Source: Acidimicrobiia bacterium
Lineage (GTDB): Bacteria > Actinomycetota > Acidimicrobiia > Spongiisociales > ZC4RG35
Reading direction: 5' to 3'
Assembly: GCA_965215185.1 (NCBI GenBank)
Contig: OZ244034.1
Coordinates: forward strand, 928,001 to 992,000
Length of the DNA: 64,000 nucleotides
Shown here: one piece after another, positions 42,397 to 57,094 of the stretch
How positions within the stretch are numbered: the first letter of the stretch is position 1
How the letters are laid out: the number at the start of each line of letters is the position of its first letter
Made by a program: the position numbers and the translations under genes
The notes under the pieces: generated by a model
Database searches by the model: none
The model's input: the letters and a program-made list of their open reading frames with translations, nothing else
What the model was told of the DNA's origin: nothing

Positions 42397-43185
42397 TTAG
42401 TTGGGTTTTGTGGTTCTGGTCAGGTACACAGCCCATGCTTCCATGACTAGACGTCTTGCTTCTAGCATGTGGAACCGGGCACGGGCGGCTCCGGCTCTTC
42501 TGGGGGTGTACGCCCATAAATGTGTGTCGGTTTGTTGTGCCCATGTCGGGACACTGATGGCATCGACACTTGTGGGGGTGTGTTCCAATACCAGGTCGGC
42601 GACGTGGGTGGGCACCCCGGTCTTGGCGCACCAGTCACGAAACGAGGATCGCATACCGTGAGGGGTGCAGCCCACATTGTTCTCTTTGCACAGTTTTGAG
42701 AGGGTGCCGTCGGAGAGGTGCCGTCCGCTGCGGGAGGGGAACACCGGTCCGTTACCGCCGGTTTGCTCTCGGGCTTGATCCAATATGGCGAGGGCTGCTT
42801 GGCTGAGCGGAACCTGGTGGGGTGTCCCGGACTTCATTCGATCGGCTGGGATGGTCCAGGTTGCGGTGGCGTAATCGATTTCTTCCCACCGAGCCCCCCG
42901 GGCCTCACCGGGTCTGGTGGCGGTCAGAGTCTGGAACTTGAAAAGGGCGATGGTCGCCCAATGAGCTTTTGTTGAAGCTATGACCCGGAGAACCTCGGGT
43001 ACCTGACTGTGGCCCACCGATGGGTAGTGCTTGACCTTGGCCGGTCCGAGGGCGACGGAGACCAGTGGGGTTGGGTCGCTGTCACGATAGTTCTTGGCGA
43101 CCGCCTGTCCGATGACTGCTCGGATGTAGTAGAACAGATGCCGGGCGGTTTCCGGTTTGGTGTGCCATATGGGCTCCAAACACGC
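42397..43185 (-). pseudogene. P4-type integrase, N-terminally truncated by IS110 ends
   Basis: TATRPGEA, MKS, HGMRSSFRDW; homology stops at ~43185. Confidence 0.85.
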
Positions 43186-43233
43186 CTGTGAGTATGTAGG
43201 GGGTGCTCTCGATTTGACAACCATAGGAGCATC
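43186..43233 (+). mobile_element. 48-bp IS110 relic: B-like left end joined to A-type right end
   Basis: CTGTGAGTATGTAGGGGGTGC resembles the B left end; CTCGATTTGACAACCATAGGAGCATC is identical to the A right end. Confidence 0.7.
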
Positions 43234-47273: not shown

Positions 47274-48304
47274 GTGATCCCCTCTCCGTATGGCTTCGGC
47301 ATCGTCGCCGACGCATCGTCCGCAGTTCGTTTGCGCCGACGGTTCCCCGTCTGTCCCAGCTTGCCCACTCTGATTCGCGGGTCGGCGACTGTGTACAGCA
47401 CGTCAGCAAGAAGTGAGAAGAATATGACGAGGAGCGCGCCGAAGAAAGCTATTCCCTGCACAAGCTGGAAGTCGCGGTTGCTTACCGCCTCGGCCAACAA
47501 CCCTCCCGCTCCCGGCCAAGCAAAAACAGCTTCGATATACAGCGATCCACCCAGCAGCGCCCCGATCTGCAGGCTCATTACGCTGATGAGCGGGATGAGA
47601 GCGTTGCGCAGGATGTAGCGTCTGTAGATGACCAGCGCTCGGAGGCCTTTGCTGCGAGCGATGCGGACGTACTCCTCGTTGACGATCTCGAGCACTGACG
47701 ATCTCGTGAACCGCAGAAGCTGAGCCATCGGAAACAAGCCGAGCGCGACCGCCGGCAAGATGATCGACTTGTTAGGTATGGTGAAAAACCACATCGATAT
47801 CGTGCCGCGCCCGAACGACGGCAGCCACCTGAGCTGAACGGCGAACACCACGATGAAGACCAACGCCAGCCAGAAATTCGGAATCGTCTGGCCCAGCAGA
47901 CCGAGACCGCGCGCCGCACTATCCCAGCGGCCGCCCGCCTTGACACCCGCGAGGATGCCGAGCGGTACTCCGACCGCTACCGCTAAGGCCATCGCCGCGA
48001 GGCCGAGCTCGATCGTCGCCGGCATCCGGTCGAAGACCACTTCTCGTACCGGGACCTTGTAGCGAAGCGAACTACCGAAGTCGAGGCGGGCCGCGTCCGC
48101 CACGAAGTCGACAAACTGCTCAACAACGGTCTTGTCCAGGCCATACGCCTGCCGTGCCGCCTCTCTTTGCTCCTGGGTTGCCTCCCGGGGAACTAGCAGG
48201 TTGGTCGGGTCCCCTGACACTCGCAGCATCAAGAAGACGATCACCATCACGCCGAGCACCAGCAGCAGTGCCTGGCCTATGCGCCCGACTAGGTACCTCT
48301 TCAC
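47270..48304 (-). CDS. Peptide ABC permease (DppB-like)
   Basis: GDP, EYVRIARSKG, EAVFAWPG, DPRI. Confidence 0.92.
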   Translation of the reverse strand: MKRYLVGRIGQALLLVLGVMVIVFLMLRVSGDPTNLLVPREATQEQREAARQAYGLDKTVVEQFVDFVADAARLDFGSSLRYKVPVREVVFDRMPATIELGLAAMALAVAVGVPLGILAGVKAGGRWDSAARGLGLLGQTIPNFWLALVFIVVFAVQLRWLPSFGRGTISMWFFTIPNKSIILPAVALGLFPMAQLLRFTRSSVLEIVNEEYVRIARSKGLRALVIYRRYILRNALIPLISVMSLQIGALLGGSLYIEAVFAWPGAGGLLAEAVSNRDFQLVQGIAFFGALLVIFFSLLADVLYTVADPRIRVGKLGQTGNRRRKRTADDASATMPKPYGEGIT

Positions 48305-48405
48305 CGACTCTCTCCCTCTGCTCGGCCCTTTTCATCTTGATTGGTGGGACCGAGGCGCAACACCCCGGCCCCACCAATGGATGACAGCTCAGTAACCTGC
48401 GTCGA

Positions 48406-49944
48406 TCAGCCGGCCACCTCCAAGTCCCAAAGCCAGTACTCCTCGGCCGAACGCGGCTTGTAGTTGGCGACCCGATCACTCGTTGCTTCGAACGAGAACG
48501 GCACGTAGAGATAGATGAACGGTGGGTCGTCGTACATCTGCTGCTGCAATTGCCGGTACAGATCCGCACGAGCGTTGTCGTCGGGGGTCGCGAGTATCTC
48601 AAGGAGGAGGCTGTCAACCACCGGGTCGGACCATGCTGAGTAGCTCGCAGCTTGGCCGCCCATGGCCCCTTGCAGGCGGTCCCAGCCCTCGGGATTGGCG
48701 TTCGACCAACTGTCACCGAACAACGGCGGCAACTGCTTGTCCGCCTCCAGATCCCAGTACGCCCCGGACTCCATGATATCGAGCGACACGTTCACTCCTA
48801 CCTCGCCGAGCTGGGCCGCGACGGATTCGCACACCTGCTCGAAGTTGGTGTAGGCAGCTGACGGGCAGGCGAATCCGATGTCGAACCCCTCGGGATACCC
48901 GGCTTCGGCCAACAACTCCCGCGCCCGATCAGGGTCGTAGGAGAAGGGCGCGAGCGCATCGTTGTAACCGAAGTCGGCGGCCGTCATCAGCCCGGTGGCT
49001 CGGACGCCGTTGCCGTTGAACAGAGCGCCGATGACGCCATCGACGTCGACCGCATGGTTGAGGGCTTGGCGCACTCTGGGATCTTCGGTTGGTTGACCCA
49101 CACCGGAGGTGAGGTTGTTGAACGCGATGTAGTAGACCCGGTTGGTCGGATACTCAATGACGTTGACTCCGTCTACGCCCTCCAGCGATGCGGCTTCGTC
49201 GGGGCTGAGGCGGCTCACGATGTCGACTTCGCCCGTCTGGATCGCTGCGGCCCTGGTGGAGGACTCGGTGATCGGCCGGAAGATGATCCGGTCGAGCTTG
49301 GGGTAGCCCTTGCGCCAGTAGTTCGGGTTCCGGTCCAACACGATGCGGTCGCCCCGGACCCACTCGGTCAGCATGAACGGACCGGTGCCGATCGGCTCTT
49401 GGCCGAAGCCCGTCAGCCCGACCTCGGAGTAGTACTTGGGAGGAACGAAGAACCATATGGCGCCGGTGAGGCCGAGGAACAGTGCGTTGGGTTCCTGTGC
49501 GACTAGCTCGACGGTGTATTCGTCGATCTTGTTCACCTCGGCCGCTCGTTCGTAGTAGTTGAAGTAAGCGTTCTCCGGCTGCTTTTGCACTTCCCACGAG
49601 AACACCACGGCGTCCGCGTTGAACGGCTCGCCGTTGTGGAACATCACGTCCTCGCGCAGCTTGAACGTGTACCTGAGACCATCGTCGGACACTGTCCACG
49701 ACTCGGCGAGGGCCGGCTCGAACTCCAGGTCGTCGTTGATCCACACCAGCGGGTCGAATATCTGGTTGGACACGTTGCCCGCGTTTCGCTCGGCTGCGTT
49801 CGCACCGTCGAGCGCGTTGGGCTGCGTCGTGAGCGCGATCATCAGCTCGCCGCCCGGGGCTGTGCCACAAGCCGCCGCCATCAGAGCGAAGACGCCCACA
49901 AGCAAACACAATTTCCTCATTCTGGATATACGGTTATATGTCAT
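48406..49944 (-). CDS. ABC substrate-binding lipoprotein, family 5
   Basis: MAAAC lipobox, FHNGEP, GTGPF, VRQALN. Confidence 0.92.
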   Translation of the reverse strand: MTYNRISRMRKLCLLVGVFALMAAACGTAPGGELMIALTTQPNALDGANAAERNAGNVSNQIFDPLVWINDDLEFEPALAESWTVSDDGLRYTFKLREDVMFHNGEPFNADAVVFSWEVQKQPENAYFNYYERAAEVNKIDEYTVELVAQEPNALFLGLTGAIWFFVPPKYYSEVGLTGFGQEPIGTGPFMLTEWVRGDRIVLDRNPNYWRKGYPKLDRIIFRPITESSTRAAAIQTGEVDIVSRLSPDEAASLEGVDGVNVIEYPTNRVYYIAFNNLTSGVGQPTEDPRVRQALNHAVDVDGVIGALFNGNGVRATGLMTAADFGYNDALAPFSYDPDRARELLAEAGYPEGFDIGFACPSAAYTNFEQVCESVAAQLGEVGVNVSLDIMESGAYWDLEADKQLPPLFGDSWSNANPEGWDRLQGAMGGQAASYSAWSDPVVDSLLLEILATPDDNARADLYRQLQQQMYDDPPFIYLYVPFSFEATSDRVANYKPRSAEEYWLWDLEVAG

Positions 49945-50044
49945 GTTTTCGCCTCCTGGTTGTTGCTGAAACGCCCCGGGTATCCCGGAGTGTGTTTTAC
50001 TTGAGTCCAGCTCGCTGGACTCGCTTCTGTTAATCATGGTAGTT

Positions 50045-50180
50045 GGTCCGGAACTGGCTTCGAGGGTGCGGTGCCGTTGGCCATCGCGAACTTAGCTTTG
50101 GTGGTGTAACGGGTGGGGTCTCCCACTCCGGCAAGGATCTCGGCTGCGACCAGGGCACCGATGCCGTAAATGTGAGCCTG
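50045..50180 (-). mobile_element. IS110 C-type transposase internal fragment
   Basis: HIYGIGALVAAEILAGVGDPTRYTTKAKFAMANGTAP matches 56066-57094. Confidence 0.8.
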
Positions 50181-50478
50181 TATACATGTCTGTGTGAGGT
50201 GGGTTCTCTGAATCGCACCGATGCTCCTATTTTTGTCAAATTGATGCTTCTATGATCTCCAAATCGGGTTCGGGGGGTGGGTGGGCGTTTCGGTGGAGGG
50301 GTGGTTTCGGGGGTTGGTTGGTGGGTTTTCGAGGAGTCGGTAGAGCTGTCGGGCGATGTACCGTTTGAGACAGCGGCGGGTTTCGCGGGTGGTTTTGCCT
50401 TGGCTGGTGCGTTTGCCGATGTAGGCCCGGGTTTTGGGACAGTATCGGGAGCGGCTGATGGCGATGGTGTGGATGGCT

Positions 50479-51955
50479 TGATGCTCCTATGGTTGTCAAA
50501 TCGAGTTTTGGTGGGGTGTGAGGGTGGTGAGCCATTGGTGGTATTGGGTGGCGAGTTGATGGTTGTGGTAGATGCCTCGCTCGAGTTGTGAGAGGCGTAC
50601 TGGGTAGGTTTGTAGGGCTGTGGCGGCGTGGGTGAGGGTTGTTAGCGCGTTTTTGCGTAGACAGCGAAGATGGGCGCCGTTGGGAGTTTCGGGTGGATTG
50701 GTGAGCAGGTGGTAGATCTGGCGGGCGATGTGGCGTTTCAGGCAGCGGATGATCTCCCGGCGGTTTTTGCCTTCTGTTTGTCTTTTTTGGGCGTAGGCGA
50801 TGGTGGTCTGGTCGTAGCGCATGCGGGTGATGGCGATCCGCCACAGGGCATTGTTGGCTTGGCGGTTGCCGCCCCGGTTGAGCCGGTGGCGTATGGTCCG
50901 TCCCGACGACGCCTGGACGGGACTGGCGCCGCACAATGCTGCGAAGGACGCTTCCGATTGCATGCGTTCGGGGTTGTCACCGGCGGTGACCAACAGGGCA
51001 GCGGCGGTGTCGGCGCCGACTCTGGAGGCGGCTAACAGCGCCGGGTTGACCTGGGCGCAGAGATGGTTGATGTCGGTGGTGAGTTCTTCGATCTCGGCGG
51101 TGAGCGCCTGATATCGGCGGGCCAGGGAACGCAGCGCCTTTTTGGCGTAGGTGACGGTGATGGTGGCTGTTCGGGAACGGAAACCGGCGCAGGCCTTGAC
51201 GCGGGCTTTGGCCGGCAGTCTCTCTAGCTGGTGTTTGACCTGGTCGGGGGCGGTTACCACCAAAGCGTGCAGCTGGTTTATGGCCTGGGTGCGGGCTTTG
51301 GTCGCCGAACGGCGGGCCACCGAAAGCATCCGTATTGCTTCCACTCGACCGTTGCCGCTTTTGGGCACTGCGGTGGCCTGTCCGTTGAGAACCGCCCGTG
51401 CCGCTCCTTGGGCGTCGGTGGCGTCGGTCTTGCCCAACCGGCGGCGCAACTGCCGGTTGGGACGGTTCACCTCTGTCACCTGACACCGGCCTCGGTTAGA
51501 TAACGGGCCAGACCGGCGCCGTAACTGCCGGTGCCCTCTATACCGACCCGGACCACTCGACCGTGTGACCCCAACCAGTCGCCCAGTTGCTGATAACCGG
51601 CCGTGTCGGCCACGAAGGGGGCTGTTCCCAGGACCCGACCGGTGCTGTCCACCACCGCCGCCATGTGAACATCCCGGTGGGTGTCCACCCCACCGCACAC
51701 ATCTACCTGCTGACCTACTGACATGAACAATCCTCCTTGGATAGAATTCTGGCTAATCACCCAGACCCGGTGGCGGGTGGACAGACCACTCAGAATGAGG
51801 GAGAAGCAAAGCTCCTATCAGGTCACATCCGCCCACGGGTCGGGTGAACATCCCCCAGCCGGAAAACAGGCCGACAGATCAAGCCAAAGGCACAACGGCC
51901 AGGTTGAGTTTGGGTCAGACCTGCCCCGGCCTAGGGGCCCTTACAAGTATGAGTG
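50479..51955 (-). mobile_element. IS110 element A (recombinase 51724-50496, frameshift ~51480, C-terminal XRE-like HTH)
   Basis: GVDTH, GIEGTG, KTDATDA, SSG, HRLNRGGNR; CA core present at both junctions. Confidence 0.92.
51745..51935 (-). ncRNA. Predicted bridge RNA of IS110-A (ends approximate)
   Basis: Guides AACUCAACC (51910-51902), UGGCUUG (51886-51880), AUAGGAGC (51818-51811), UGAGUG (51792-51787) match the target flanks and element ends. Confidence 0.85.
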
Positions 51956-52859
51956 GTTGAGTTGGCGGTCGCCGCGTCGGTTCAGTCGGTGACGGGTGTG
52001 TTGTCCCGATGAGGCTTCGAGTGGTGCTACGCCGACTAGACGAGCGAAGGCGGCTTCGTTGCGGCAGCGGCGAGGATGAGACCAGGCAATGAACACTTGG
52101 GCGGCTGTGATAGGGCCGATCCCGGGTTGTTGGAGTAGCTGGGGAGCTACGGTTTGGACCAGTTCGGTGATAGTTGTTTTGAGTTCGGTTGCTTCGGTGG
52201 TGAGTGCGTGGATTCTCCGGGCTGCAGAACGCATCGCCTGTTTGGTGGCGGTGTGTTCGTTGGCCGGTGCTGATCTGAGTCGGAACTTGTGGCATTTGGT
52301 GACCAGGGCAGCAGTGCTCAGGTCACGCAGTTGGTCTCTGAGGTCAATGGGCGCGGTCACTAGGAGGGCTTTCAGTTCGTTGATCGCCGATGTTCTAGCT
52401 GTTATGGCACCACGGCGGGTAGTTTCCAGTACTCGTAGGGCTTCTCGTTCTCCCCTGGCCCGCGGTGTGGGAGGCCGGGAGCGGCCCAGCGCCTGGCGGG
52501 CGGCCCGGCGAGCGTCCAGTGCGTCGGTTTTGGCGCCGTCTCCGGTTGTTGGGTTGGGGTTGTTGAATTCTGTTACCCATTCACCTCGAGCGGCGAGATG
52601 GCTGGTCAGGCCTGCTTCATAGCTACCGGACCCTTCAACAGACCACACGCGACTGGCGGTCTGGGTGTGCTGGTCTGCCCATTTCAACAACCGGTCGTAT
52701 CCCACCCTGGTGGTCTCGAACATTGCGGATGCTTGTTCTCCGGTGGTGGCAGTGTCAACTACTGACGCGGTGACCCGATCACGGTCAGGATCGATTCCGA
52801 TCACATGCTCTACCGTTGTGGCCAACATCAGGACATCTCCCTTCTTCTTTGCGAACTGG

Positions 52860-53060
52860 GTTGTGCCCCGGCTGAGGCGCGATCCGCGAACGGCAGGACT
52901 GTGATGAGTCACACCCCTTTGGGGTGGACAGGCTTCTGATTAGGCCAGCGCGGTACGCCAGGTCGGCGCTGGTGGTCAATGTCGGACAGATCATAGGAAA
53001 GACACCAATCCGGGTCAGTCAAATTTAGGGTCACGACATCACTACCAGCACCGAGCCTGA
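52860..53060 (-). ncRNA. Predicted bridge RNA of IS110-B (ends approximate)
   Basis: Same scaffold as A (GACCC..guide..UG; UU..guide..AUCUGUC): AAAUUUGAC (53026-53018), UCCUAUG (52998-52992), AGAAGC (52937-52932), UCACAG (52904-52899). Confidence 0.8.
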
Positions 53061-53104
53061 GAACCTCCAAGAAGGGCACCCCCCCATATTCTCACAGTCA
53101 AATT

Positions 53105-53178
53105 GATGCTTTTATGATTTGGAAATCGCTTTTCGGGGGTGGGGGTTATTTGAGCTTTTTGGTGGGGGGTTTTCTAGT
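53105..53178 (-). mobile_element. Right end of a second B-type IS110 (B'), truncated by IS481
   Basis: LENPP...* followed by ATCATAAAAGCATC, like the B right end. Confidence 0.75.
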
Positions 53179-54110
53179 TGTCCTTCCCATGGACGTGGTT
53201 GACAGAATGCTTGGATGAGTGAGGGCCTCCTGGTTTGATTCGTGGGATAAGCAACAGTCCTCGAATCAAAAGGAGGCCCTCGTGAGAACCAACTGTAGAA
53301 AGTTGACACCGTTCGGGCGTAGGTTGTTGGTGGATCGGATCCTCGAGTTGGGTTGGCCGGCGGCTCGGGCCGCTGAATCGGTGGGAGTGTCTCGGCAGAC
53401 TGCCTATCGGTGGATGAGACGCTGGCGGGAGGAAGGAGAGGCCGGACTGGAGGATCGCTCCAGCAGGCCTCACCACAGTCCCAATCGGGTCTCTTCTGAG
53501 ATGGAAAAGCGGATCGTTTCGGATCGGATCACAGAGAAGGAAGGCCCCCATCTGATGGCCGGACGGCTGGGTGTACCGCGGTCGACCATCTACGGGGTGC
53601 TCGCCCGCCGGGGACTGTCCCGCCTCTCCGACTTGGACCGGACCACCGGCACACCGATCCGCTATGTGCGAGACTGCCCAGGTGAACTGGTCCACGTGGA
53701 CATCAAGAAACTGGGCAAAATACCTGATGGAGGCGGGTGGCGGGTCCTGGGCCGGTCTCGGGCTAATCCCCGTCAAAAGGTCGGATATGAGTATGTGCAC
53801 TCCATGGTCGATGACCACACCCCAATGGCCTACTCAGAAGCCCTCGACTCCCAGGACGGCCCAACCTGCGCCGGGTTCATGCTCCGCGCCGCCCACTGGT
53901 TCGCCACCTACGGGTATCGCATAGACCGAGTAATGACCGACAACGCCATGGCCTACCGCCGAAGCCGACCCTTCGCCGATGCCCTCGCCCAGATCGGCGC
54001 CGCTCACAAACTGATCCGACCCTACCGACCCCAAACCAACGGGAAAGTGGAACGCTTCCACCAAACCCTCCTCGGAGGATGGGCCTACAAACAACCCTAT
54101 ACCACCAACC
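53179..54110 (+). mobile_element. IS481-family element (transposase from GTG 53282), 3'-truncated by an IS110-A-type left end
   Basis: IR TGTCCTTCCCATGGACGTGGTTGACA; PGELVHVDIKKLG, TDNA, PQTNGKVERF; hairpin 53221-53281 covers the RBS. Confidence 0.9.
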
Positions 54111-54125
54111 ACTCATACTTGTAGG

Positions 54126-54215
54126 TGGAGTTCCCCCGTTATTAAGGACATCTATTCTGTGATCGTGAGGGGTGGTGTTGGTCTCTCGGGAAGGAGGTTT
54201 GAATGCCTGCTCCCT
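54126..54215 (+). mobile_element. IS3-family left-end remnant
   Basis: TGGAGTTCCCCCGTTATTAAGGACA IR-like, then GGAGG-ATG. Confidence 0.5.
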
Positions 54216-54262
54216 GCCAAGCCCAGAGATTGAACAGATTCTTTCGTGACTCGGTTGGGATA

Positions 54263-54430
54263 TCATTTGCCTAAGTAGCGGCTCCATTGTTCCATTATTT
54301 CGCGGCGTCGTTCCAGGAGGTCGGTTCGGGCGTTGGCCTTTTCTACCGCTTTTAGGATTTCGTGACCGAGGGCCTGTTCCGCCACTTCGCGGCTGATCCC
54401 TGTTTCACGACACCAATCCCGAAACGAGCT
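54263..54430 (-). pseudogene. P4-type integrase C-terminal remnant
   Basis: SSFRDWC...ALGH...ARTDLLERRR. Confidence 0.85.
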
Positions 54431-56065
54431 TACGCATGTGGCGGGCACCTCGTGGACGGACGGTTGATGTCCGATCTCACCGGGGGGAAGGTAGCGAGAG
54501 CCTTTTCGCTGTCAAGCGTTCCCCGACAATCCAGTTGGGCAACCCCGGCTACTACCGGCAAGACGAGAAGTTGCTGGTTTGGGATTTGAAAGGAGTGTGC
54601 CCTGGCTGACGAACCGCGGGTCGAGGAACGGCGGAATGGCCCGGCGGATCTAGGGAGGCAAAGGGGAAACGACACCGGAGAAGCCCACACACATCCTCTG
54701 CGGGGGGATAGGCGAAGTTGCCTACACAGGCGTATTCGTCAGAGAGAAGGTCCAGATTTTCTACCTCTACGGAGACAACTGCCTGATCTTCTGCGCAGCG
54801 ATAGCGCCCCGCAACTAGCCGACAGCCAACAACACCTACTCCATGTACCCGCCTGAATCGCGCCGGGTTTCAGTTTGTCCCAATCGGTGCCATGGAAAGG
54901 GTTTGCCCCTTCAGATGTGTAGGTAGCGGTTCCAGTGTTCCATTAGTTGGCGGCGTTGTTCTAGCAGGTCGGTTCGGGCGTAGGCTTTTTCTACAGCGTT
55001 TCGGATTTCGTGTCCGAGGGCCCGTTCGGCGACTTCCCGGTTTACGCCTGTTTCTCCGCACCAGTCTCGAAACGAGCTTCTCATCCCGTGTGGCACACAA
55101 CCCACCTGGTTCTCCTTGCAAAGTTTGCTCATAGTGGCATTGCTCATTGTCCGTCCGGTGGGGGATGGGAAGATCAAACCAGTGCTGGTTGATGTTTGGC
55201 GTGCGGTGAAGAGAACCTTTAGTGCCCCGGTGCTGAGCGGAACCCGGTGTTTTGTCCGGTTTTGGTGTGTTCTGGGGGGATTGTCCAGGTTGCTGTGGCA
55301 AGGTTAATCTCGTCCCATGTGGCGTTTCTGACCTCCCCGCTACGGGTGGCGGTGAGGGTGAGGAATGTGAAAGCGGCGATGGTAGCCCAGTGAGCGTCGG
55401 TGGTTTCGACAGTCCGTATTGCCGTGGCGACTTGGCTGTGGTGGAGGGCTTTCATGTGTTGGGGTCGTTGGGTGTTGGAGCCCAGGGCGGCGGTGATACG
55501 GTCGTCGGCTGGGTTGTTCTCTCGGAACCCCTGGGCGATGCACCATTTCATGACCGCGGCGATCCGTTGTTTGACGCGGCGGGCCGTTTCGGGTGTTGTG
55601 TGCCATATGGGGGTGAGGCAGGCCATGACATTGGCTGTGGTGATTTGGTCCACCCGTTTTTTCCCAAGGTGAGGATAGGCGTAGGTGTGGAGGGTTGACC
55701 GCCAGTGTTCTTCGGACCTGCCGCCAGGTTTCCATTTGGCGGCGTGAAGCTGGATTACTTGTTCGGTGGCCTGGCGAAAGGTGGGTGCTTTGCGGGGGCG
55801 GGGGTTGCGGCCTTCTGCGATGGCTTGGCGGTTTCGGAGAGCCCGCCGGCGGGCTTCGGCGAGGGTGACTGCTGGGTAGCTACCCAGGCCCAGGTTGGTG
55901 TATCTGCCGTTGATCTGGTTTCGTTGTGCCCAGGTTTTGGAGAGTCGCCCCTGGATTTTGGTTGGTTTGACCAACAGAGAAAGTCCATGGCCGCCTCGGC
56001 CGTCGCCATAGCGTCCGGGTTGGGTCACTGTTCTAACGAAAGATGCTGTGAGTGTTGGTGAGCTC

Positions 56066-57094
56066 CTATGTCAAAATCGGGGTTGGTTTTGGTGGTTGGA
56101 GGTGGGTCCAGATGCGGTCTGAGATTCGGCGTTTGAGGACGCGTATGGCGTCTCTGTGGGTCTTTCCTCGGGTGATGAGTTTCTGGTAGTAGCGGCGGCC
56201 TTCGCTGTCTGCGCGGGCGATCTGGGTCAAAGCGGCGGTGTGGATGGCCCGGTTTAGTTGGCGGTTCCCACCCCGGTTGAGTCGATGGCGTACTACTCGT
56301 CCGCTGCTGGCTTCGATGGGTGCGGTGCCGTTGGCCATGGCGAACTTGTCTTTGGTCGCATAGCGGTGTGGGTTGCCCACCTCCGAAAGGATGGTGGCAG
56401 CGACCAGTACACCCACCCCGTGAATGTCTAGTAGACGGGTTTCGGATTGGTCGACCAGTGTTTTGATCTCGGCGGTGAGTTGTTTGATCTCGGTGTCCAG
56501 TTGTCGCAGTCTTCGGATGCGTTGTTTGGCTACCCGCCCGTGGGGGGTGGTGTCCCGCCAACACAGTTTCATGGCCTGGTCGAGGGCTTTTCGGGTGGTG
56601 AGCCGGGGAATGTTCTGGTGGTAGCCTGGTCGGAGTTTCCCCAGGTCGGCGTGGAGCCGGTTGGCCTGGGCGGTGCGGTCTTCTACCAGTTCACGGCGGT
56701 ATGAGACCAGCACACGGAGGTCTTCGGTGTCCTCCCAAAACGTCGGCGGGGCGAGCGTGTTGTCTCGGAGAGCGACCCTGGCGATCACCCAAGCGTCGAC
56801 CTGGTCGGTTTTGGTCTGGGTACGGCCCCGGCGCCGGACCTGGGCGGTCAGCTGCGGTGGAACCTCCCGGATGTCCAGACCAGCGGCCATAGCGGCGACC
56901 GCGGCTGGGCGGCCGAACGTGCCGGACCCCTCGACCGCTACCCTGGCGGCGTTGGTGGTGTGAGCCCAATCTATGAGTTGACGGTGACCAGTAGGGGTGT
57001 TAGCGATGGTCCGGTACTCCAGGGCGGTGCCCAGGTGGTCTACCAAACAGGCAGAAAGGGTATCCTTGTGCGAGTCGATCCCGATAACGAACAT
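56066..57094 (-). CDS. IS110-family DEDD recombinase
   Basis: GIDSH, VEGSG, KTDQVDA, SSG, HRLNRGGNRQLN. Confidence 0.95.
   Translation of the reverse strand: MFVIGIDSHKDTLSACLVDHLGTALEYRTIANTPTGHRQLIDWAHTTNAARVAVEGSGTFGRPAAVAAMAAGLDIREVPPQLTAQVRRRGRTQTKTDQVDAWVIARVALRDNTLAPPTFWEDTEDLRVLVSYRRELVEDRTAQANRLHADLGKLRPGYHQNIPRLTTRKALDQAMKLCWRDTTPHGRVAKQRIRRLRQLDTEIKQLTAEIKTLVDQSETRLLDIHGVGVLVAATILSEVGNPHRYATKDKFAMANGTAPIEASSGRVVRHRLNRGGNRQLNRAIHTAALTQIARADSEGRRYYQKLITRGKTHRDAIRVLKRRISDRIWTHLQPPKPTPILT

Follow-up and report, generated by a model that had tools for sequence, protein, structure and literature searches.

Predicted bridge RNA guides of an IS110-group insertion sequence match a coding motif in recombinase genes of another IS110 lineage

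The stretch of DNA analyzed here (the window: 64,000 nucleotides of contig OZ244034.1 from an Acidimicrobiia bacterium) contains a gene for an IS110 recombinase, gene B, that is interrupted by another insertion sequence of the IS110 group, element A. This raises the question of what placed A in exactly these codons of gene B. A sequence-only reading of the window had proposed that the guides of A spell a conserved motif of a rival IS110 recombinase and that A avoids its own gene. Our analysis makes it highly probable that the landing site of A is chosen by a predicted bridge RNA from its 231-nt noncoding left end and that A homes in this way into genes of the B type. The reading that we favor is that such genes serve as landing pads, the loss of the element that is hit being a by-product.

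Anatomy of element A and the site it occupies

Element A is an IS110-group insertion sequence of 1477 bp, the CA dinucleotide being counted at both junctions. It consists of a 231-nt noncoding left end, a recombinase gene and a short right end. The features of A and of the gene that it interrupts are the following.

50479-51955, minus strand: element A (junction reading, relatives in the same genome, shared ends)
51725-51955, minus strand: noncoding left end of A, predicted source of the bridge RNA (alignment of 30 left ends and RNAalifold consensus)
51476-51724, minus strand: N-terminal piece of the A recombinase (DEDD/RuvC-like), with a premature stop after the frameshift (PF01548, E 2.3e-11)
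50496-51485, minus strand: C-terminal piece of the A recombinase in another frame, with its own GGNRQANNAL motif at about 50845-50875 (PF01548 and PF02371)
50481-50502, minus strand: right end of A, GATTTGACAACCATAGGAGCAT, with TTGACA at 50499-50494 (sequence reading, family right ends)
51956-51963, minus strand: left half of the target site, AACTCAAC, in the QLN codons of gene B; same sequence as the left guide
50474-50478, minus strand: right half of the target site, AGCCA, in the QA codons of gene B; pairs with the right guide as its complement
51956-52828, minus strand: 5' part of gene B, as far as the RQLN codons (PF01548 and a PF02371 match that is cut at profile position 65 of 87)
50250-50478, minus strand: 3' part of gene B, QAIHTIAISR... 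to the stop at 50252-50250 (sequence reading)

Read on the minus strand, the junctions are CGCCAACTCAAC/CA/CTCATAC...(A)...ATAGGAGCAT/CA/AGCCATCC or, in a longer reading, CGCCAACTCAAC/CA/CTCATACTTGTAAGGG ... CGATTTGACAACCATAGGAGCAT/CA/AGCCATCCACACC. Gene B reads ...RRGDRQLN before the insert, which has the same orientation as the gene and cuts off its last 76 codons (from 50250-50478). When a single CA is kept, the frame of gene B is restored (RRGDRQLNQAIHTIA). The two junctions have only this CA in common, with no target duplication beyond the shared core, and no long terminal inverted repeats were seen in A, as judged by eye only. The range 50474-51963 corresponds to element A plus the two target half-sites. 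Full-length relatives of A are present in the same genome, and the ends CACTCAT... and ...ATAGGAGCATC are common to the family.

The Pfam domains DEDD_Tnp_IS110 and Transposase_20 were matched in A, where they are split over two frames, in gene B and in a third recombinase gene of the window, gene C. A thus has both the N-terminal DEDD RuvC-like domain and the C-terminal Tnp domain by which the group is recognized (PF01548, PF02371), although its gene is broken. The reading frame starts at ATG 51724, with a Shine-Dalgarno-like AAGGAGG upstream, and is disrupted by a 1-nt deletion near 51481 relative to the sister copy A' (GTCGAGGTG versus GTCAGGTG). Among the contigs of public sequencing runs that match A, those of three of the four runs (X1, X4 and X6) have an extra base after 51481 (plus strand), as A' does, and in each of these three runs the sole contig that covers 51481 has the base missing from A. 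The frameshift is therefore private to this copy of A, or to this assembly. A long noncoding region precedes the gene (231 nt before ATG 51724, versus about 17 nt beyond the stop at 50496-50498). Elements of the IS1111 group have their RNA encoded downstream of the gene and subterminal inverted repeats in the ends, as far as the portions of PMC11208160 and PMC11187229 considered here describe them. A, with its noncoding region upstream, does not show this arrangement of a downstream RNA region and subterminal inverted repeats of 7-17 bp.

Guide segments that track insertion sites

Four short segments in the left end of A are complementary or identical to the sequences that the element joins.

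51902-51910, minus strand: left target guide AACUCAACC, 5' side of the predicted target-binding loop (9/9 with the flank plus the core C)
51880-51886, minus strand: right target guide UGGCUUG, 3' side of the predicted target-binding loop (complement of CAAGCCA, 7/7)
51811-51818, minus strand: donor guide AUAGGAGC, in the sense of the right end ATAGGAGCATC (almost no variation among 30 left ends)
51787-51792, minus strand: donor guide UGAGUG, complementary to CACTCA at the start of the left end (almost no variation among 30 left ends)

At the DNA level, the left guide AACTCAACC (51910-51902) equals the left half-site plus the C at 9/9 positions, and the right guide TGGCTTG (51886-51880) is the reverse complement of CAAGCCA at 7/7. 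Both guides together match the split site AACTCAAC-C-AAGCCA at 15/15 positions, and this site encodes the RQLN/QAI residues of gene B. The donor segments agree with the ends of A itself, ATAGGAGC (51818-51811) with the right end and TGAGTG (51792-51787), as complement, with CACTCA. This is the geometry of IS621 as given in the part of Durrant et al. (2024, PMC11208160) considered here, with a left guide in the same sense as the left target, a right guide complementary to the right target and an overlap of the two at the core.

An alignment of 30 left ends of the family was conserved nearly throughout, save for two short hypervariable segments. The RNAalifold consensus is a long stem that ends in a small hairpin, and the two segments form the facing sides of one internal loop in this stem. 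Compensatory changes were found in 13 of the 35 predicted pairs, and the stem around the donor loop was left unresolved by RNAalifold.

There are 13 related left ends in the genome of the window (G000), and their loops track their flanks. The family was also present in 13 of 16 other genomes of the genus that were searched and in 1 of 24 genomes outside it. Across the genus we parsed 59 distinct left ends, 47 of them with a readable left flank and 22 with the right end found as well. The left guide matched the left flank of its own copy at a mean of 7.85 of 9 positions (n = 47), compared to 4.84 after shuffling (maximum 5.57 in 200 shuffles); 17 copies scored 9, 16 scored 8, nine scored 7, three scored 6, and single copies scored 4 and 3. 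Similarly, the reverse complement of the right guide matched the C plus the right flank at 5.05 of 7 positions (n = 22), compared to 2.68 after shuffling (maximum 3.41 in 500 shuffles). The cleanest match between guides and site in the family is that of A (15/15). Since the left and right loops both track their flanks far above the shuffled values, the two variable segments behave, to judge from these comparisons, as programmable left and right target guides.

A search for other copies with the guide of A in the RQLN codons of IS110 genes had been set beforehand as a check. The left guide AACTCAACC is carried by four copies, three of which occupy the same codon (RQLN or RKLN) of three B-type genes. 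One of these is A in gene B. Another is A', at position 374101 of G000, which is 99-100% identical to A, carries an 84-nt internal deletion in its left end (A coordinates 92-175) and lies in the same codon of a gene B'. Genes B and B' share only 78% identity over 1044 nt, versus the 99-100% shared by their inserts, indicating separate insertions and not one copied composite. In the third, from species G009, both junctions fall at contig ends. The left one reads ...RRGDRKLN/CACTCAT... at the start of a contig, and the right one, at the end of another contig, is ATAGGAGCATC/AGGCCCTCCACACC and reads (Q)ALHTIAISR. The fourth copy, in G011 (L103, G011:C10:2329000-2336000), is 80% identical to A, has an open recombinase frame of 437 codons without a stop and carries the right guide TGGCTCG, one base off that of A. 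It is the only one of the four outside IS110 genes, in an ISL3 gene, so copies with this guide do not lie mostly outside IS110 genes. Two further candidates were set aside: a metagenome match to the guide pattern (L065) was a chance match in an unrelated gene with no insertion sequence left end around it, and a match in a public genome contig (L064) agreed with the G011 copy L032 in left flank, left end and guide and was taken to be that copy.

The occurrence of the 15-mer itself is in agreement with this narrow targeting. The genome of the window has no unoccupied site within one mismatch of it; an insertion is present in each of its two exact sites, and every one of its three unoccupied B-type genes departs from the 15-mer at 3 positions. 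The other 16 genomes of the genus contain three exact 15-mers (one in G004 and two in G002), all unoccupied and all in B-type genes at GDRQLNQAIHTIA, and 14 sites with one mismatch, two in IS110 genes and 12 elsewhere. The exact sites of the genus, three unoccupied and two occupied, are all in B-type genes. Among 401 genomes sampled evenly across the class, the exact 15-mer was found in one, as the G004 copy in its B-type gene. The target is, at the level of DNA, specific to one IS110 lineage of the genus, the B type, and not general to IS110 genes. Because the guide loops covary with the flanks and the exact 15-mer is rare in the class, the match of A to its site in gene B exceeds chance. Finally, in four public runs, each of a different study, contigs join the two flanks of A at the predicted point, skipping 1475-1476 nt with two ambiguous letters, so unoccupied sites exist in natural communities.

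Targets of the wider family and insertions in return

We sorted the 47 left flanks into classes by means of tblastn, Pfam and near-identity between flanks, with frames chosen at the junction and confirmed by Pfam. Clustering of flanks chained IS110 3' ends with IstB flanks, and it was used only to carry labels between near-identical flanks (L048, L034 and E10/E11 of G000). The classes were the following.

IS110 genes or ends: 8 copies, one assigned by eye only
ISL3 transposase: 7 copies
IS21 IstB: 4 copies
IS256: 2 copies
HNH/DUF222 genes: 2 copies
DDE_Tnp_1_6: 1 copy
TnpB: 1 copy
IS3 orfA: 1 copy
PD40-repeat gene: 1 copy
without family assignment: 20 copies

At least 24 of the 47 copies have another insertion sequence as their site, either its transposase gene or one of its ends, a count that overstates the number of events, as copies in related genomes are not independent. 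The IS110 sites targeted include RQLN, RHRLN and RCLK codons and the right end at ..GATTTGACAAA. Among the 20 flanks without family assignment, six have TTAGCCTG(G/A)ATCC and four have GAAATTCC, and these shared motifs suggest that the sites are repeats. When distinct target types in mobile-element genes were counted across G000 and loci L032-L092, 16 of 18 were co-oriented with the host gene, the reversed ones being L078 (ISL3) and L021 (IS256). Such co-orientation would allow read-through transcription into the left end.

A trace of the family was also seen elsewhere in the window. An 18-nt A-family left-end stub, CACTCATACTTGTAGGTG, lies at 54108-54125 (plus strand) after ...ACCACCAAC, at the point where an IS481-type transposase gene (53219-54124; Pfam domains LZ_Tnp_IS481 and rve) has its 3' end, and the flank resembles the ACACCAAC target type of other genomes.

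We then compared A with the equivalent sites in gene C and in its own gene.

56066-57094, minus strand: IS110 recombinase gene C, intact, with the equivalent site AACTAAACCGGGCCA from 56259 (Pfam and genome search)

The site in gene C, AACTAAACCGGGCCA, matches the 15-mer at 12/15 positions and has three copies in the genome, all unoccupied. The equivalent site of A itself, AAGCCAACAATGCCC, matches at 10/15 and has an A at the position of the core C (counted by hand). The sequence-only reading had given both of these counts, the empty site with its 9/9 and 7/7 guide matches on the minus strand and the fit of the donor guides to the ends of A, and it was right on all of them. Its proposal that A avoids itself holds insofar as the own site mismatches the guides. 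Nevertheless, the family recombinases in which the motif was found all read G-(G)-(N/D)-RQAN(N/Q)AL, while the B types read RQLNQAI; the self-mismatch of A is, as read from these sequences, a clade-wide protein difference (RQANNAL versus RQLNQAI) and need not be a dedicated avoidance device. None of the 22 full elements had a match of 13/15 or better to its own predicted site, the best matches being 9-12. A self-mismatch is predicted by any hypothesis, because an element aimed at itself would destroy itself.

Gene C is directly upstream of a piece of a tyrosine-integrase gene (55219-56028, minus strand; Arm-DNA-bind_3, Phage_int_M and partial Phage_integrase). Together, genes B, A and C, the IS481 element and this integrase piece form a dense cluster of mobile genes at about 50 to 57 kb of the window.

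Elements of the B clade have the same kind of loop, and their left guides fit their flanks. The element to which gene B belongs provides an example.

52829-53096, minus strand: left end of element B with its own bridge RNA region; left guide AAUUUGACU at 53025-53017, equal to the left flank of B, AATTTGACT

With this guide, element B is found at AATTTGACT, next to the final 23 nt of an A-type right end (50220-50242, AATTTGACAAAAATAGGAGCATC). To the left of B (53097-53135) there is a B-type right-end remnant, then AATTTGAC; the latter is found on both sides of B (53097-53104 and 50235-50242), an arrangement that a simple core-sharing insertion does not explain.

B-type elements with ..CCACTCT guides were found inside A-type left ends in opposite orientation, three of them at the GAGTGG donor-guide sequence (G000:C1 2343808 and 1324126, and L036 at about 193) and a fourth near the start of an A-type left end (L042 at about 1456). 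In two genomes, elements of a type that we call B2 lie in the GGNRQANNA codons of A-type genes (G000:C1:371690-373085, inside A', and G007 L078 at about 2810), which is the position homologous to the site of A in gene B. The left guide of the G007 copy, CAACAACG, fits its flank. That of the G000 copy matches A' at 8/10 positions on the left, and its right guide fits only when G-U pairs are counted, so we treated this case as near-cognate.

Two more observations concern the right ends of A-type elements. Members of the A family with the guide UUGACAAAC target the TTGACA-bearing right end of relatives exactly (G000 1097488, 2341216 and 909136). A stub of about 24 nt that resembles a B-type left end (TGTGAGTATGTAGGGGGTGCTCTC) stands directly before GATTTGAC of A-type right ends in two places, at 43185-43233 of the window (plus strand) and at G000:C1:1095994-1096045.

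Proposed homing, possible antagonism and precedents

The course of events that we propose for A is as follows. The target-binding loop of the bridge RNA would pair with both strands of the 15-bp site, and the donor loop with the joined ends of A, ATAGGAGCAT-C-ACTCAT. Since the 15-bp site occurs in the genus only in the GDRQLNQAI codons of B-type genes, A would home into those genes, in the same orientation. By analogy with IS621, an excised circle would join the right end to the left end, and strand exchange would take place at the shared C. The circle junction would bring TTGACA (50494-50499) 17 nt upstream of CATACT in the left end (51941-51951), and this candidate junction promoter would drive both the RNA and the recombinase. 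After insertion, transcription of gene B could read into the co-oriented A. The frameshifted A would need a recombinase supplied by a copy with a long open frame (E2, E7, E10 or E11). The clade has conserved ends and a conserved donor loop, but its two guide segments have been rewritten many times, mostly toward conserved parts of other mobile elements (IS110, ISL3, IS21 IstB, IS256, IS3 and TnpB). We favor a selective logic in which other insertion sequences serve as landing pads, being repeated, dispensable and transcribed and moving along with the host lineage, and in which the loss of gene B is probably a by-product.

Several observations weigh against this account. The fit between guide and flank is imperfect, with five of the 47 copies scoring 6/9 or less; 20 of the 47 left flanks were matched to no family, in addition to the nonindependence of copies noted above. 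Searching 48000-55000 with Rfam cmscan at E values up to 1 matched no family, and the RNA structure consequently rests on the alignment of left ends. The sides joined by the public contigs are short (21-63 nt), and other strains or paralogues, rather than excision, may be their source. The G011 copy lies at CTGAAATC/C/GATGAGCC. This site, with which the guide of the copy itself does not agree, is located where an ISL3 transposase gene has its 3' end. In the genome of the window the same ISL3 site is held by E10 and E11, whose guides do match it, which suggests that the exception is explicable by guidance in trans by the RNA of another member or by recombination between left ends, since all members share the donor ends and the donor loop.

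This last case bears on the idea that A itself was placed by the RNA of another copy and that its own loop came to fit the site by later conversion or chance. With donor ends and donor loop common to the clade, the RNA of any member could in principle move any other, and the G011 copy at a site cognate to the E10/E11 guide may be an instance. We consider this extremely improbable for A, which fits its own site at 15/15; moreover, 42 of the 47 copies match their own left flank at 7/9 or better, indicating that use in cis is the rule. Nor is it at all likely that the composite of A in gene B arose once and was then copied as a unit, in which case repeated occupancy would be silent on targeting. 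The near-identity of A and A' in the same codon would fit such an origin, but their host genes have diverged far more than the inserts, the G009 copy has 5 differences from A in its first 52 bases (by manual count) and lies in a third B-type gene with RKLN/QALH, and the covariation of guide and flank holds at many different sites.

Active antagonism is a more serious alternative, although we regard it as rather doubtful. According to it, guides are selected to destroy competing insertion sequences, and the guides of the A and B clades encode an arms race, each clade aiming where the other cannot easily change its sequence. The insertions in both directions lend it support: A types in B-type RQLN codons and B2 types in A-type GGNRQANNA codons, ..CCACTCT B types in A-type left ends, with three at the donor-guide sequence and one near the left-end start, and other A types at the right end of relatives, where TTGACA lies. 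G000 has an insertion at each of its two exact sites, and its three empty B-type genes differ from the target, whereas G002 and G004, which lack this guide, retain three exact sites. The same family also targets noncoding repeats and a PD40-repeat gene, however, and the unoccupied B-type genes differ from the target at the amino acid level (QLNRAL versus QLNQAI), which marks older sublineages and is not demonstrated escape. The fact that all 22 elements mismatch themselves is compatible with antagonism but does not discriminate, a self-aimed element being lost under every hypothesis. It is conceivable, and no more than tentatively proposed, that two IS110 clades of one Acidimicrobiia genus fight via their guides, each loop being repeatedly rewritten toward sequences that the other needs, namely, the homologous codons of the G-x-RQ-x-N recombinase motif, the donor guide within the bridge RNA and the right end with its -35 sequence. 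Because the family also targets ISL3, IS21, IS256, IS3 and TnpB genes and noncoding repeats, an aim at repeated DNA that is dispensable accounts for the data no less well than the targeting of rivals. The claim that A targets a conserved motif of rival IS110 genes is supported in that the exact sites are all in B-type genes; at the DNA level the motif is confined to that lineage, and the word "rival" is interpretive.

Homing into B-type genes as landing pads has partial precedents. Inteins and group I and group II introns home into conserved gene motifs, and A resembles them as a selfish element whose target is hard for the host gene to change. Unlike these, A does not splice out, so that the gene that is hit is destroyed, and it would use a guide RNA and a recombinase, not a homing endonuclease. 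Muller, Lauf and Hermann are said to have described in 2001 that IS1383 integrates into the inverted repeats of IS1384. Like IS1383, A is an IS110/IS1111-family element with a specific target inside another mobile element. In contrast to the terminal repeats targeted by IS1383, the target of A lies inside a recombinase reading frame, and in the case of A a whole clade has diversified its guides over many transposase families, with reciprocal insertions.

Bridge RNAs and seekRNAs are established (PMC11208160; PMC11187229), and the comparisons that follow are limited to the portions of these two papers considered here. As in IS621, A has a recombinase with DEDD and Tnp domains and a long noncoding left end upstream of the gene, and its second loop fits the ends of the element itself (PMC11208160). 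The natural target of IS621 is a repetitive extragenic palindromic (REP) element, whereas that of A is a coding motif of another IS110 recombinase, and the shared core in the A family appears, from sequence comparison, to be C plus a variable base and not CT (PMC11208160). IS1111-group elements target attC or REP sites with a seekRNA, and natural reprogramming between close relatives has been reported (Siddiquee et al., 2024, PMC11187229). The predicted RNA of A likewise comes from a noncoding region and fits both strands of a short target, but it is encoded upstream of the gene and not downstream as in the IS1111 group (PMC11187229). In the portions of the literature that we covered, including two 2026 preprints, we found neither IS110 guides directed at transposase coding motifs nor reciprocal targeting between IS110 clades; the supplementary tables of 2024 may list such targets.

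Bridge RNAs and seekRNAs are known to target, in nature, REP elements, attC sites and transposon terminal repeats; to these a protein-coding motif of a recombinase of the same family would here be added. The two short guide segments of this clade have been rewritten toward many transposase genes while the rest of the RNA stayed fixed. The 59 left ends and their sites therefore represent a natural series of reprogrammed guides, which would be useful for deriving rules of target choice. They also offer a testable case of an interaction of transposon against transposon and a reason for the nested insertion sequence graveyards in such genomes. If antagonism between the two clades were true, occupancy and sequence change at these sites would record a transposon arms race, with a logic comparable to that of CRISPR interference.

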